Source: a virus (lineage: Duplodnaviria; Heunggongvirae; Uroviricota; Caudoviricetes). Taken from it: a stretch of DNA of 4,940 nt. Made by a program: the position numbers and the translations under genes. Shown piece by piece: positions 887 to 4,940 of the stretch; within the stretch, counting starts at the first letter, position 1, and each line of letters begins with the position of its first letter. Where the stretch lies: the IMG/VR virus record IMGVR_UViG_2913177423_000007, one strand, 5' to 3'. The notes below the pieces were generated by a model, which saw only the letters and a program-made list of their open reading frames with translations, had not been told where the DNA came from and ran no database searches.

Positions 887-897
887 GTGGAGTGAGT

Positions 898-3273
898 ATG
901 GCAGTACAGATTTCAGGTGTGCTGAAAGATGGTGCGGGAAAACCAATACAGAACTGCACTATTCAACTGAAGGCAAAGCGTAACAGCACCACGGTACTGG
1001 TGAACACGGTGGCCTCTGAAAATCCTGATGAAGCCGGGCGTTACAGCATGGATGTTGAGTATGGCCAGTACAGCGTCACCCTGTTGGTTGAAGGTTTTCC
1101 GCCTTCACATGCCGGGACCATTACCGTCTATGAAGGTTCCAGACCAGGTACGCTGAATGATTTTCTCGGTGCCATGACGGAAGAGGATGTCATGCCGGAG
1201 GCATTGCGTCGTTTTGAGGAAATGGTGGAAGAAGCGGCACGCAACGCCGAAGCCGCCTCTCAGAGCGCAGCGGCGGCAAAGAAATCCGAAACTGCAGCGG
1301 CTTCATCGAAGAACGCGGCGAAAACCTCAGAAACGAATGCAGCTAACAGCGCACAGGCGGCAGCGTCCTCGCAGACTGCATCGGCAAACTCCGCGACAGC
1401 AGCCAAAAAATCAGAAACCAACGCGAAAAACAGCGAGACAGCCGCAAAGACGAGCGAAACCAACGCAAAGTCCAGCCAGACGGCAGCGAAAACCAGCGAA
1501 ACGAATGCCAAAGCCAGTGAAACTGCGGCGAAAAGCAGTCAGGATGCAGCAGCTGAAAGCGAGAGTGCGGCGGCCGGTTCTGCGACTTCAGCAGCCGGAT
1601 CAGCAACTGCTGCGGCTAACAGCCAGAAAGCTGCGAAGACGAGCGAAACTAACGCAAAGTCCAGCCAGACGGCAGCGAAGATCAGCGAAACGAATGCTAA
1701 AGCCAGTGAAACTGCGGCGAAAAGCAGTCAGGATGCAGCGGCCCAAAGCGAGAGTGCCGCAGCTGGTTCTGCAAGTGCGGCTGCTGCTTCTGCCACTGCA
1801 GCAGCCAACAGTCAAAAAGCAGCAAAAACCAGTGAAAACAACGCAAAGGCGAGCGAGACTGCGGCGGCTAACTCGGCGAAAGCATCCGCTGCAAGCCAGA
1901 CGGCTGCAAAAGCAAGTGAAGACGCAGCCAGAGAGTATGCAAGCCAGGCTGCGGAGCCGTATAAACAAGTTTTGCAGCCGCTTCCCGATGTGTGGATACC
2001 GTTTAACGATTCACTGGATATGCTTGCTGGCTTTTCGCCTGGTTATAAGCAAATAACTGTAGGTTATGATGTTATTAAAATGCCATCCGATAAGGTTGTT
2101 AGCTTCAAACGCGCATCAGGTGCAACATACATTAATAAATCAGGAGTATTAACCGTTGCTGAAGTTGACGAACCGCGATTTGAACGAGAAGGTTTGCTGA
2201 TTGAAGGACAAAGAACCAACTATCATCTTAATTCACTTACACCATCTAAGTGGGGAGCTACAACAAGTGTAACTATAACAGAAAGTGGTGTTGATGAGTT
2301 TGGCTTTACTTATGGGCGGTTTCAAATAAAGGACGAAAAAATTGGGACAAATACGACAATGAATATCGCTGCGGTTTCAGGAGGAAGAGGTGTCGATGTT
2401 ACTGGAACTGAAAAGTATGTTACAACATCATGTCGTGTAAAAAGCGATAGTGCTAATATACAATGTCGTATAAGATTTGAAAGATATGACGGGTCCGCAT
2501 ATTTTTATCTGGCAGATGCATATCTTAATATAACAGATATGTCCATTAGAAAAACGGGAGGAGGGGCTGCAAGAATAACCGCCCGAGCGGAGAAAGAATC
2601 TAATGGATGGATTTATTTCGAGGTTACATATCAATCTGAAGCTATTGATAATATGGTTGGCTCTCAGATCCAAATTGCTCCACCTGTTTCACCTGGAACT
2701 TATTTGGGCGGGGAATATTTGGATGTTACGACACCACAATTTGAAGGCGGCTCATGCGCATCATCTTTTATCATTTCCGATACAGTTGCATCAACGCGAG
2801 CAAGCGATATTGTTACATTGCCTTGCAAAAATAACATGACCAGCAAACCTTTAACCTGCATGGTTGAAGTGAATAAAAATTGGTCTATAGCACCAAATTC
2901 CGCGCCTAGAATTTATGATATAACAGGATTTAAAACAAAAGACGACGCTTTTGTTTTTGCATTCAGAAATACAGCAGGTAGTGTAGGAACTCCATATGTT
3001 CAATTTGGTAATCCAATATCATTTCCACCTGGAAATTACCCAAGAAAGATTATCGCTGTATATAGAATAAAAAGCGATGGCAAGTTTCAGGCTGGCTGCA
3101 ATGGGGTTTTATCAACACCAGCATCAACAACGTGGAAGAGTGTTAATGGTGCTACAGGTATAAGGATTGGAGGTCAGACTACAGCCGGCTTACGTCATTT
3201 ATTTGGTCATATCAGGAATTTTAGAATATGGCATAAAGAATTAACCGATGCGCAAATGGGAGAGGTAATATAA
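898..3273 (+). CDS. stf: Side tail fibre protein, 791 aa: lambda Stf-like N-terminal region, Ala/Ser/Thr/Lys-rich repetitive shaft, divergent AT-rich C-terminal distal region
   Basis: The N-terminus MAVQISGVLKDGAGKPIQNCTIQLKAKRNSTTV...GRYSMDVEYGQYSV...GFPPSHAGTITVYE...PGTLNDFL closely matches my recollection of lambda Stf (MAVKISGVLKDGTGKPVQNCTIQLKARRNSTT...). The following KTSETNA(K/R)SS repeats are also as in lambda Stf. ATG at 898 is preferred over the track's GTG at 892 because GGAG at 889-892 gives a 5-nt spacer. Stop is TAA at 3271-3273. Confidence 0.9.
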   Translation: MAVQISGVLKDGAGKPIQNCTIQLKAKRNSTTVLVNTVASENPDEAGRYSMDVEYGQYSVTLLVEGFPPSHAGTITVYEGSRPGTLNDFLGAMTEEDVMPEALRRFEEMVEEAARNAEAASQSAAAAKKSETAAASSKNAAKTSETNAANSAQAAASSQTASANSATAAKKSETNAKNSETAAKTSETNAKSSQTAAKTSETNAKASETAAKSSQDAAAESESAAAGSATSAAGSATAAANSQKAAKTSETNAKSSQTAAKISETNAKASETAAKSSQDAAAQSESAAAGSASAAAASATAAANSQKAAKTSENNAKASETAAANSAKASAASQTAAKASEDAAREYASQAAEPYKQVLQPLPDVWIPFNDSLDMLAGFSPGYKQITVGYDVIKMPSDKVVSFKRASGATYINKSGVLTVAEVDEPRFEREGLLIEGQRTNYHLNSLTPSKWGATTSVTITESGVDEFGFTYGRFQIKDEKIGTNTTMNIAAVSGGRGVDVTGTEKYVTTSCRVKSDSANIQCRIRFERYDGSAYFYLADAYLNITDMSIRKTGGGAARITARAEKESNGWIYFEVTYQSEAIDNMVGSQIQIAPPVSPGTYLGGEYLDVTTPQFEGGSCASSFIISDTVASTRASDIVTLPCKNNMTSKPLTCMVEVNKNWSIAPNSAPRIYDITGFKTKDDAFVFAFRNTAGSVGTPYVQFGNPISFPPGNYPRKIIAVYRIKSDGKFQAGCNGVLSTPASTTWKSVNGATGIRIGGQTTAGLRHLFGHIRNFRIWHKELTDAQMGEVI
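1260..1930 (+). repeat. Low-complexity coding repeat region (the Stf shaft) with roughly 7/14-residue periodicity
   Basis: Translation is dominated by reiterated motifs such as KTSETNAKSSQTAA, KTSETNAKASETAA and KSSQDAAAESESAA. The reverse strand stays open here only because of GCN-rich codons. Confidence 0.8.
1441..1818 (+). repeat. In-frame tandem duplication, 2 x 189 bp (63 codons each): copy 1 at 1441-1629, copy 2 at 1630-1818, with a degenerate partial third copy from 1819 to about 1866
   Basis: Direct alignment in the sequence: gccgcaaagacgagcgaaaccaacgcaaagtccagccagacggcagcgaa... at 1441 against gctgcgaagacgagcgaaactaacgcaaagtccagccagacggcagcgaa... at 1630. The first ~110 nt of each copy are near-identical. 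Differences are mostly synonymous third-position changes. Confidence 0.85.
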
Positions 3274-3554
3274 TGCGAGATTTAATTATCAAATTCACAG
3301 ACAAGGCCGACTTTTCGGCCTTTATGGATAGCATTGGTTATTATGATGACGAGATGATGCAGAACGATGTTCTCATTGATGTAATAGGTGACGTATACAA
3401 AGAAACAGGCGAACTTACTGAAGATGGCGAGCCGGTATGTGTTAAGGAAGACGGATATTTTGTAAACGTGCGCATCATTAATGATTCGCAAATATCGTCA
3501 TTATTCGATGAATACGCGGTTGCTGTTGAGCATCAACTTCGTGGCTGGATGTGA
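3273..3554 (+). CDS. Hypothetical small acidic protein, 93 aa, translationally coupled to stf; function unknown
   Basis: Its ATG at 3273-3275 overlaps the stf stop TAA at 3271-3273 (TAATG). GGGAGAGG at 3258-3265 is a Shine-Dalgarno sequence 7 nt upstream. The protein is Asp/Glu-rich with no predicted transmembrane segment. I recognise no family and see no resemblance to lambda Tfa. Confidence 0.6.
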   Translation: MRDLIIKFTDKADFSAFMDSIGYYDDEMMQNDVLIDVIGDVYKETGELTEDGEPVCVKEDGYFVNVRIINDSQISSLFDEYAVAVEHQLRGWM

Positions 3555-3563
3555 GGAAGAAAA

Positions 3564-4604
3564 ATGGCTACATCGACAGTAATTCCTGATGACATCAAAA
3601 CGCTAAAATCCGATGTTAGCAAATTAAAAAACGATCAAGGAAGCTACGTAACAAAATCATATGTAGACAGCAAAAATGAAACCGTTAATGACTGGTCTGC
3701 TGCATGGTATCAGCAGGTACTGCCAACTAGCGGAGCTATATTTGGGCGAAAACTTCGCTCAACTCACAGGACGGCAGGTGTTGAGGATGCGTATTGCGAA
3801 CTATACCTTAAAAAATGGATAGACAGCCCAGGGAACGCAATGGCGCGCCTTAACCTGAACGATAACGGTGAAAATATTTGCTGGGATTTTACCAACCTTT
3901 ACGGCGGAACAATGATCTTCCCTGGTACTTCAGGTTATCTGAAAATGGGGAACTGTCTCATGTCGTATGGTGTGCGGGGAAGTAACGCGCTTATTAAGTT
4001 TGATAATACAGACACATTACAAATCAAATACGCTAATCATGGGTCAACCATGACATTAAACACACAGGGAACCGCTCACGCTGGCGTAACAACTCGACTA
4101 TGGGGCAATTCTAGCCGTCCGGTTGTTTATGAAGTTGGCGTAGATGAGGCTCTGTATATGTTCTACGCACAGAAAACTACCAGCAATACCTACGAATTAA
4201 CGGTTAACGGCGCGTGCAATGCAAGTGCATTTAATCAAGGCTCTGACCGGGATCTGAAAGACAACATTCAGGTGATCGATAATGCAACTGACCGCATCCG
4301 TAAAATGAACGGCTATACATACACGCTTAAAGAAAACGGTATGCCCTATGCTGGTGTCATTGCACAGGAAGCTCTGGAAGCCATCCCCGAAGCCGTAGGG
4401 TCTATGATGAAATATCCAGACGGTGGGAGTGGATTAGATGGAGAAGAAGGTGAACGGTATTACACTGTAGATTATTCTGGTGTTACTGGCTTGCTTGTTC
4501 AGGTAGCCAGAGAGTCAGACGACAGAATAACAGCACTGGAAGAAGAAAACGCAGAATTAAGACAAAGGTTATCTGCAATTGAGGCGGCGCTTGCGTCTAA
4601 ATAA
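3564..4604 (+). CDS. Short tail fibre/tailspike-like protein, 346 aa, with a C-terminal peptidase S74-type intramolecular chaperone autoproteolytic domain
   Basis: ATG at 3564 has AGGA at 3554-3557 six nt upstream. The C-terminal region reads ...NQG-SDRDLKDNIQVIDNATDRIRKMNGYTYTLKENGMPYAGVIAQEALEAIPEAV...RITALEEENAELRQRLSAIEAALASK. This matches the S-D-x-R-L-K ... GxIAQEλ..λPEAV signature of the chaperone domain of phage K1F endosialidase and T5 L-shaped tail fibre, and ends in a coiled-coil-like tail. Stop is TAA at 4602-4604. Confidence 0.8.
   Translation: MATSTVIPDDIKTLKSDVSKLKNDQGSYVTKSYVDSKNETVNDWSAAWYQQVLPTSGAIFGRKLRSTHRTAGVEDAYCELYLKKWIDSPGNAMARLNLNDNGENICWDFTNLYGGTMIFPGTSGYLKMGNCLMSYGVRGSNALIKFDNTDTLQIKYANHGSTMTLNTQGTAHAGVTTRLWGNSSRPVVYEVGVDEALYMFYAQKTTSNTYELTVNGACNASAFNQGSDRDLKDNIQVIDNATDRIRKMNGYTYTLKENGMPYAGVIAQEALEAIPEAVGSMMKYPDGGSGLDGEEGERYYTVDYSGVTGLLVQVARESDDRITALEEENAELRQRLSAIEAALASK
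4242..4601 (+). other. Predicted S74 intramolecular chaperone domain (residues 227-346), with putative catalytic Ser227 (nt 4242-4244) and Lys232 (nt 4257-4259)
   Basis: SDRDLK is encoded by tct gac cgg gat ctg aaa at 4242-4259, with the Ser-to-Lys spacing of five residues recalled for the endosialidase dyad. The downstream GVIAQEALEAIPEAV block fits the family. Self-cleavage would leave a mature protein of about 226 residues. Confidence 0.65.
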
Positions 4605-4610
4605 TATTAA

Positions 4611-4633
4611 GGGGCCGAGCGCCCCGTTTTATT
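4611..4633 (+). terminator. Rho-independent terminator after the S74-domain fibre gene
   Basis: GGGGC (4611-4615) pairs with GCCCC (4621-4625) around a 5-nt loop CGAGC, followed by GTTTTATT (4626-4633). It starts 7 nt after the stop codon. Confidence 0.6.
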
Positions 4634-4646
4634 GGGTAGGATGAAA

Positions 4647-4940
4647 ATGGATATAACACCTTTCCTTCATGCGCTTTGTGCTGTGGCTGCGCAGCTACTG
4701 ATTGGTCTTTTTACCGGGAACTGGGCTTACGGAGCGATAGCCGGTTGTACGTTCTTCATTGCGCGTGAACACACCCAGGCAGAATATCGCTGGATTGAAA
4801 TGTTCGGGCATGGCAAGCGGATTAACATGCCGTGGTGGGGCGGTTTTGATCCACGCGCGTGGGATGTAGCAAGCCTGATGGATTTTTCTGTGCCGGTGGT
4901 GGCGTGTCTGCTGGTCTGGGTATTTATCCGTTCAACATAA
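4647..4940 (+). CDS. Small hydrophobic protein of about 97 aa, predicted integral membrane protein of unknown function; possible moron or accessory gene
   Basis: ATG at 4647 is preceded by AGGA at 4638-4641 with a 5-nt spacer. An in-frame ATG at 4641 is an alternative; the track's TTG start at 4632 lies inside the terminator T-tract and is unlikely. Hydrophobic stretches ITPFLHALCAVAAQLLIGLF, WAYGAIAGCTFFIA and FSVPVVACLLVWVFI suggest 2-3 transmembrane helices. Stop TAA is at 4938-4940, the last three bases of the window. GC is about 50-60%. Confidence 0.55.
   Translation: MDITPFLHALCAVAAQLLIGLFTGNWAYGAIAGCTFFIAREHTQAEYRWIEMFGHGKRINMPWWGGFDPRAWDVASLMDFSVPVVACLLVWVFIRST

Follow-up and report, generated by a model that had tools for sequence, protein, structure and literature searches.

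Tail-fibre tips set the hosts to which a phage can attach, and engineers swap tips to retarget phages and phage-derived particles. Trimeric tips normally need a chaperone, for example Tfa in lambda, Mu and P2, gp57A and gp38 in T4, or an S74 domain. Tip swaps often fail if the tip is moved without its helper. Here we analyse a 4,940-nucleotide stretch of DNA from a tailed phage (IMG/VR record IMGVR_UViG_2913177423_000007, Caudoviricetes), called the window below, of which positions 898 to 3,554 are displayed. Its side tail fibre gene, stf, ends in a lectin-like tip and is followed, in the position of tfa, by a small open reading frame (ORF) that encodes an acidic protein of 93 amino acids, ORF93. 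We show that this small gene accompanies one class of fibre tip strictly across phage lineages and that it is kept independently of a second fibre gene downstream. What does the small protein do? The most likely answer, to which we give an even chance, is that it is a dedicated partner of the tip class, acting as a Tfa-like assembly helper or chaperone.

Organization of the stf locus

All features of the window described here lie on the plus strand. The window opens with the 3' end of J (positions 73-837; central tail fibre and tip attachment; Pfam Ig_GpJ_C and Phage_Tail_Tip), which serves as context only. A terminator-like hairpin (858-877) with its T-run (858-887 in all) lies between J and stf (892-3273). 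The 793-residue product of stf (Pfam phage_tail_N, E 6.6e-67; phrog_1419) consists of an N-terminal anchor (residues 3-133), a shaft of Ala/Ser/Thr-rich repeats and the lectin-like tip at its end. Its distal region, residues 394-793 (2071-3273), is the constant upstream partner of ORF93 (3273-3554; phrog_1361), which begins with an ATG at 3273 and ends with a TGA at 3554. Next comes fibre2 (3564-4604), a second short fibre of 346 amino acids (Pfam Peptidase_S74, E 3.4e-14; phrog_4563) made up of an N-terminal peptide, MATSTVIPDDIKTLK (3564-3608), a variable body and the Peptidase_S74 domain at residues 227-278 (4242-4397). A second terminator-like hairpin (4611-4625) and T-run (4611-4633 in all) closes the stf-ORF93-fibre2 block, and a small membrane-type ORF (4632-4940; phrog_1443, function unknown) completes the window. 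A scan of the window revealed no terminator-like site between stf and ORF93.

The junction of stf and ORF93 is compact. The stop codon of stf (TAA, 3271-3273) and the start codon of ORF93 (3273-3275) overlap by one A, giving TAATG. A strong Shine-Dalgarno sequence, GGGAGAGG, can be read within the end of stf at 3258-3265, 7 nucleotides from the ATG. The protein, of about 10.7 kDa, has 21 Asp and Glu residues and 7 Lys and Arg residues, for a net charge of -14 and an isoelectric point (pI) of 4.05. The G+C content is 0.36-0.42 over positions 2000-3600, which hold the Stf tip and ORF93, versus 0.55-0.60 in the Stf shaft (1100-1900). An earlier note on this DNA, made from the letters alone, had described the acidic ORF and its sequence, the overlap with its Shine-Dalgarno sequence, the AT-rich composition that makes the gene part of the tip module, and the lack of a tfa gene where one would be expected. 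All four descriptions hold; for the last, the window contains no Tfa-type ORF, and no ORF in it matches Caudo_TAP.

A selected gene from a small family

ORF93 is a genuine gene and is subject to purifying selection: the ratio of non-synonymous to synonymous substitution rates (dN/dS) is 0.27-0.31, and none of 130 copies contains an internal stop. The gene is carried, at 80% DNA identity or more, by 988 of 5426 complete Escherichia coli genomes, a lower bound for the family. Three complete E. coli chromosomes carry the ORF at 100% DNA identity. The copy of strain PSS-04 sits within a lambda-like prophage adjoining the pao genes.

The protein matches PHROG 1361 (function unknown) over its full length, residues 1-93 against positions 1-92 of the 92-position profile (E 1.7e-43), and so do all 37 of its diverse relatives. 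What the earlier note called an unknown protein thus lacks a function-assigned family, but the family itself is already in the databases, with only its function unassigned. An exhaustive hidden Markov model search of 1.84 billion representatives returned just 88 relatives, which makes this a small family. Matches within proteins of 1326-2744 amino acids were set aside as compositional noise; the matching stretches are ordinary PKD or TPR repeats.

Does the protein resemble anything with a known role? Neither ORF93 nor the profile of the 37-member family gave an informative match in NCBIfam, PADLOC or the PDB, and PADLOC returned no family at E<=1 for ORF93. The sole Pfam match of ORF93, to CIS_spike_tip, is not significant (E 0.2). 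Caudo_TAP (PF02413) does not match it at E<=1, Peptidase_S74 is absent from it and present in the adjoining fibre2, and none of the 37 relatives matches any Pfam model at E<=0.01. Homology to an unrelated family, a possibility that the earlier note had left standing, therefore finds no match in Pfam, NCBIfam, PADLOC or the PDB.

AlphaFold2 predicts a compact alpha/beta fold with confidence (predicted local distance difference test score, pLDDT, 82.7), for which a comparison with known folds gave nothing informative. The predicted order is beta-alpha-alpha-beta-beta-beta-beta-alpha, and a disordered or flexible C-terminal tail carries a conserved R-x-W. Across the family D3, G61, N65, R67, R90 and W92 are invariant, within the signature MxDLxLKF ... 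DxIG ... GYH/FVNxR ... PxRVWA. By sequence, size and predicted fold, ORF93 is outside Tfa, S74 and every other described family. We found no paper that gives a small gene of this type a role.

The small gene is strictly linked to one class of fibre tip

The tip of Stf consists of sub-module A (about residues 436-637) and a LamG-like sub-module B (about residues 640-793), the last 40 or so residues of which are conserved. Residues 436-637 match the NCBIfam model GTA_spike_fiber (phage head spike fiber domain, NF048003) with 51.7 bits against a cut-off of 36 (E 1.5e-13). Residues 707-788 resemble Pfam Laminin_G_3 (PF13385, concanavalin A-like lectin) at 24.8 bits, under the cut-off of 27.6 (E 2.6e-5). 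Conservation is concentrated in residues 394-453 and in the final 40 residues, with hypervariable stretches between them. Five phage lineages have tips homologous to this one, with identities of 30-74%. In the virulent phage IrisVonRoten the homologue is Gp22, described from an AlphaFold model as a proximal fibre with a galectin-like end domain (BASEL papers, PMC8594841 and PMC11990801). Binding of a glycan by the Stf tip is plausible by analogy, because the lateral fibres of IrisVonRoten act against the O16 O-antigen (PMC8594841, PMC11990801).

Nearly everywhere that we found this tip, the small gene was beside it. In our first survey a family member starts 0-3 nucleotides from the stop codon of the tip-bearing fibre gene at 151 of 152 loci. 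A distant uncultured lineage, whose fibres have shaft repeats of the Stf type ('AAKTSETNA') and tips ending in '...HIRNFRIWH...', shows the same pairing at 80 of 80. Taken together the surveys give 231 paired loci out of 232; the lone exception is a contig that is cut 211 nucleotides upstream. The earlier note had asked how far the stf-ORF pairing extends across genomes, and we found no module with a homologous tip from which the ORF was missing.

The genomic surroundings of the pair vary widely. On four unrelated backbones, those of phage 21 (lambdoid), KarlJaspers (Drexlerviridae), IrisVonRoten (T5-like) and Alma (an rV5-like myovirus), the small gene lies directly 3' of a gene whose product is 40-60% identical to Stf over its last 375 or so residues, whereas the genes further downstream are not the same. 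The upstream protein of Alma is the tip alone, 383 amino acids long. The T5-like phages AKFV33, Lindwurm and SelmaRatti, with tips about 30% identical, have a divergent 88-residue family member in the equivalent position (E 1e-14 to 1e-16). Among phage genome records the tip was found in 208 and the small ORF in 181; those records of the excess that we inspected hold the divergent 88-residue member. Fibres that lack this tip, namely LtfA of DT571/2 (L153) and the LTF of TrudiGerster (L154), have no small gene and are single chains with an S74 domain of their own. DT57C LtfA/LtfB was rejected as a comparable locus: it is a different, S74-bearing single-chain allele. Linkage of the small gene to the tip class is thus strict across lineages.

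This linkage bears on a rival explanation, that ORF93 is an unrelated passenger (a moron, an anti-defence factor or a regulator) that rides beside a fibre gene. The protein has no assigned function, and phage anti-defence factors are often small and acidic. A passenger, however, would not keep a stop/start overlap with one domain class across at least five unrelated backbones, both lytic and temperate. The gene is also expressed within a late structural operon, and the lack of a PADLOC match speaks against a defence-related role. We consider a passenger highly improbable.

Several database records touch on the distribution of the module. In Lambda_4C10 (L091) the stf tip is interrupted by an insertion of three genes labelled 'mobile element protein'. 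Downstream of this insertion the small gene is intact, as is the membrane ORF. The MG0656xx records named 'Campylobacter phage' (C2, C11-C15, A12a and others) contain fibre modules of E. coli rV5-like phages, T5-like phages or prophages at high identity. A contig from a metagenome-assembled genome of 'Collinsella sp.' (L087) likewise bears a fibre module of the E. coli phage type. These records look like misassignments of host or bin.

ORF93 is kept where the second fibre is missing

The earlier note had also suggested that the small protein might be an adaptor for the downstream fibre. Several observations favour the idea. The small gene lies next to fibre2, and so between two fibre genes, at 96 loci of the first survey and at all 80 loci of the distant lineage. 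At these loci the N-terminus of fibre2 is conserved and its body varies, with swapped alleles of 346, 234, 221 and 557-586 residues. In enterobacterial phages fibre2 begins with M-x-T-x-T-x-IP-x-DI-x-x-LK; this N-terminus is common to the 346-residue allele of the window, a 234-residue allele, a 225-residue protein of KarlJaspers and the T-shaped fibres of 557-586 residues in T5-like phages. A conserved N-terminus on swapped bodies could be a plug. ORF93, seated on the Stf tip, would then be the socket that receives the fibre2 N-terminal peptide (MATSTVIPxDIxxLK), forming a branched fibre. The T-shaped Gp24 of IrisVonRoten has been modelled attached to Gp22, with the joint left unexplained (PMC8594841, PMC11990801).

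As the whole function of the protein, the adaptor does not survive. At 51 of the 147 assessable loci fibre2 is absent: 49 are prophages of the phage 21 type and two are rV5-like (Alma and a close relative). The membrane ORF lies directly 3' of the small gene at the phage-21-type loci, and the Alma record annotates a terminator in that place. The small gene without fibre2 remains intact and selected, with a dN/dS of 0.31 in the phage 21 clade versus 0.27 where fibre2 is present. A role as adaptor only is therefore untenable, and ORF93 is independent of the second fibre. A joint of the plug-and-socket kind is unlikely on this evidence.

All fibre2 alleles that we tested contain Peptidase_S74, and fibre2 therefore supplies its own folding aid. 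In the 234-residue allele the domain occupies residues 117-173, so that the mature form would be a stub of about 116 amino acids. DT571/2 and TrudiGerster have one long LtfA, in which the fibre2-like part starts from its second residue and is joined in frame at about residue 508; nature has here made a single chain of what is split over three genes in the window.

Allele mixing around a conserved junction

Is each small protein matched to its own tip? At the prophage loci, small proteins that are 78-100% identical occur with about 16 tip alleles, and identity between these tips falls to 31%. By this comparison of alleles ORF93 is generic to the tip class and not allele-specific. The earlier note had raised, as one possibility, a novel cognate chaperone for the new distal domain; its observation of a gene tightly coupled to stf in the position of Tfa is supported, whereas a specific match to this tip allele does not hold.

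The window is itself a recombinant. Residues 419-768 of Stf match locus L072 (96-100% identity). From about position 3196 to 4604 the window instead follows the PSS-04 prophage (L001), with identities of 100% for Stf residues 769-793, 100% for ORF93 and 97% for fibre2, which places the breakpoint within the conserved last 25-40 or so codons of stf. A second exchange is visible within the tip. Sub-module A (residues 444-618; 2221-2745) is 88-100% identical, in bins of 25 residues, to Gp22 of the virulent IrisVonRoten (L003), but the LamG-like sub-module B shares merely 20-56%. As judged from these identities, the pattern indicates that a lytic siphovirus and a lambdoid prophage recently exchanged one half of a receptor-binding domain. 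The G+C content drops from about 0.55 to 0.40 near positions 1950-2000, at a conserved hinge, PLPDVWIPFNDSLDM, which is matched by the hinge PFPDVWLPLNDDLRLLAGF of the distant lineage. Recombination probably joined the upstream end of the tip module at this hinge.

In Mantel (co-variation) comparisons the small protein correlates with the last 40 residues of Stf (rho 0.66) and with the N-terminal peptide, the first 35 residues, of the next gene's product (rho 0.60-0.68), and only at rho 0.26 with the whole tip; these correlations are weak evidence, confounded by physical linkage, with the small gene and the N-terminus of the next gene lying within 300 base pairs. The closer tracking of the fibre2 peptide than of the tip would favour the joint described above, were it not for this confounding. 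Taken with the alleles, the data hint at a conserved junction block, formed by the last 40 or so residues of Stf, ORF93 and the first 30 or so of fibre2, between two variable receptor-binding modules. Such a block with variable modules on both sides also speaks for a joint, and it marks a natural site for the exchange of receptor-binding modules between lytic and temperate phages. We rejected a general rule of charge complementarity between tip and small protein: acidity is constant in the small protein, but only 60% of the tips are net positive.

A candidate helper for the lectin-like tip

We found neither an S74 domain in the lectin-like tip nor a Tfa partner for it, which leaves ORF93 as the sole conserved candidate for a helper. 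How might it act? Translated from the stf mRNA and coupled to the end of stf, the small protein would be made together with the fibre. It may bind the conserved frame of the new tip, probably near the last 40 or so residues, and aid folding or trimerisation to give an assembly-competent fibre, to which it may stay attached afterwards. One small protein could serve many tip alleles because it would recognise this conserved frame and not the variable sugar-binding loops. The physical binding, the chaperone activity and the site of action on the tip are what we infer.

The best parallel is Tfa (Caudo_TAP, PF02413; Gp50/U in Mu, G in P2). Both genes lie directly 3' of the side tail fibre gene, are translationally coupled to it and, as part of a mobile module, are co-inherited with the tip, and ORF93 would be the expected helper for a trimeric tip without an intramolecular chaperone. 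The differences are also clear. ORF93 is half as long as Tfa (93 versus about 175-195 amino acids), has no similarity to it in sequence (Pfam, E<=1) or fold, and is paired with a lectin-like globular tip instead of one of the lambda or T4 gp37 type. Peptidase_S74, known from the endosialidase of phage K1F and from T5 pb1/Ltf and present in fibre2, addresses the same problem of tip folding and trimerisation; it sits, however, at the C-terminus of the fibre itself and cleaves itself, whereas ORF93 is a separate protein with no similarity to it. In T4 the small accessory proteins gp57A and gp38 assist fibre assembly and the gp35/gp36 hinge joins fibre segments. The former parallel a chaperone and the latter a joint, by analogy only: we detected no sequence or structural relationship.

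The nearest homologous system is Gp22-Gp23-Gp24 of IrisVonRoten (Bas32), which has the same three-gene architecture. Gp22 is 60% identical to Stf residues 132-793, Gp23 is 42% identical to ORF93, and Gp24 has the N-terminal motif of fibre2. IrisVonRoten differs in being a virulent T5-like siphovirus, and its Gp24 is a T-shaped fibre of 574 residues, compared with 346 for fibre2. The published work models Gp22 and Gp24 and gives Gp23 no role (PMC8594841, PMC11990801).

Four points weigh against a chaperone. First, ORF93 has no likeness in sequence or fold to any known fibre chaperone. Second, Tfa co-varies with the receptor-binding part of the tip and ORF93 does not, as its low correlation with the whole tip indicates. 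Third, a homotrimer of Gp22 residues 339-796 is modelled very confidently (pLDDT 95.4) without the small protein (PMC8594841, PMC11990801), and the fold of the tip is therefore not visibly dependent on it. Fourth, RefSeq/GenBank records label the homologues in IrisVonRoten and SelmaRatti 'tail fiber protein', on a basis that is not stated; the label hints at a structural role.

A structural role could take the form of a stable virion subunit of the tip, one that caps or gates the sugar site or adds negative charge and so modulates receptor binding. Strict pairing and translational coupling would suit a subunit as well as a helper, and the label in the two records points the same way. So would the strong acidity, which is universal in the family (pI 4.05-5.29 in 162 tip/small-protein pairs), and the conservation of the flexible R-x-W tail. 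The protein was undetected in two virion proteomes, both too shallow to inform: that of AKFV33 comprises four gel bands, and that of rV5 comprises 19 proteins from a phage which, not being among our DNA matches, may lack the gene. A role in specificity is unlikely, given that the small protein is far more conserved than the binding loops. Altogether we find a virion subunit of this kind quite unlikely.

The helper and the joint could also be combined: ORF93 might aid assembly of the tip and then remain there as a socket for the universal fibre2 N-terminal plug. We are doubtful of such a dual-purpose factor, which would be new in structure. If it exists, it would constitute a plug-and-socket joint that crosses phage families and builds branched fibres in siphoviruses and myoviruses alike, and two receptor-binding modules could be swapped independently on either side of the conserved junction block.

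The two-gene unit defined here, a lectin-like tip with an acidic partner of about 90 amino acids, is carried by 18% or more of complete E. coli genomes and spans at least five phage lineages, BASEL model phages among them. Should the partner prove to be an assembly factor or a joint, it would belong to a new class with no relation to Tfa or S74, and any transfer of this O-antigen-type tip would need the ORF93 partner too. Because it tolerates many tip alleles, it would also lend itself to use as the constant part in modular designs of fibres.

Other features of the module

Outside the window, at 13708-13815 of the PSS-04 prophage (L001), a fragment of 35 amino acids annotated 'tail fiber assembly protein' lies just past the membrane ORF. 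This fragment is probably what is left of a tfa gene displaced by the module. It fits a replacement of an older tip and its tfa together, and so counts in favour of a Tfa-like role for ORF93. The same record labels stf a partial pseudogene; an uninterrupted frame of 814 codons nevertheless ends at the small ORF.

The membrane-type ORF closes the module in both arrangements, with or without fibre2, and is about 87-96% conserved. Its homologue in phage 21 is annotated as a membrane protein with two transmembrane domains and starts MDISPLL. The true start in the window is probably the ATG at 4647 (MDITPF...), because the phage 21 homologue begins at the equivalent position; by this comparison the listed TTG at 4632 is likely wrong. 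The gene is a candidate for lysogenic conversion or exclusion.

The stf shaft contains a repeat of 189 nucleotides in 2.3 copies (1429-1866), with sub-repeats of 21 and 42 nucleotides that encode heptad-like repeats of the AAKTSETNAKSSQ type (region 1395-1866). The distant uncultured lineage has fibre repeats of this type as well. The Ala-rich repeat also gives rise, as by-products, to long ORFs in the shaft region that run in other frames or antisense to stf (for example 1187-2056).

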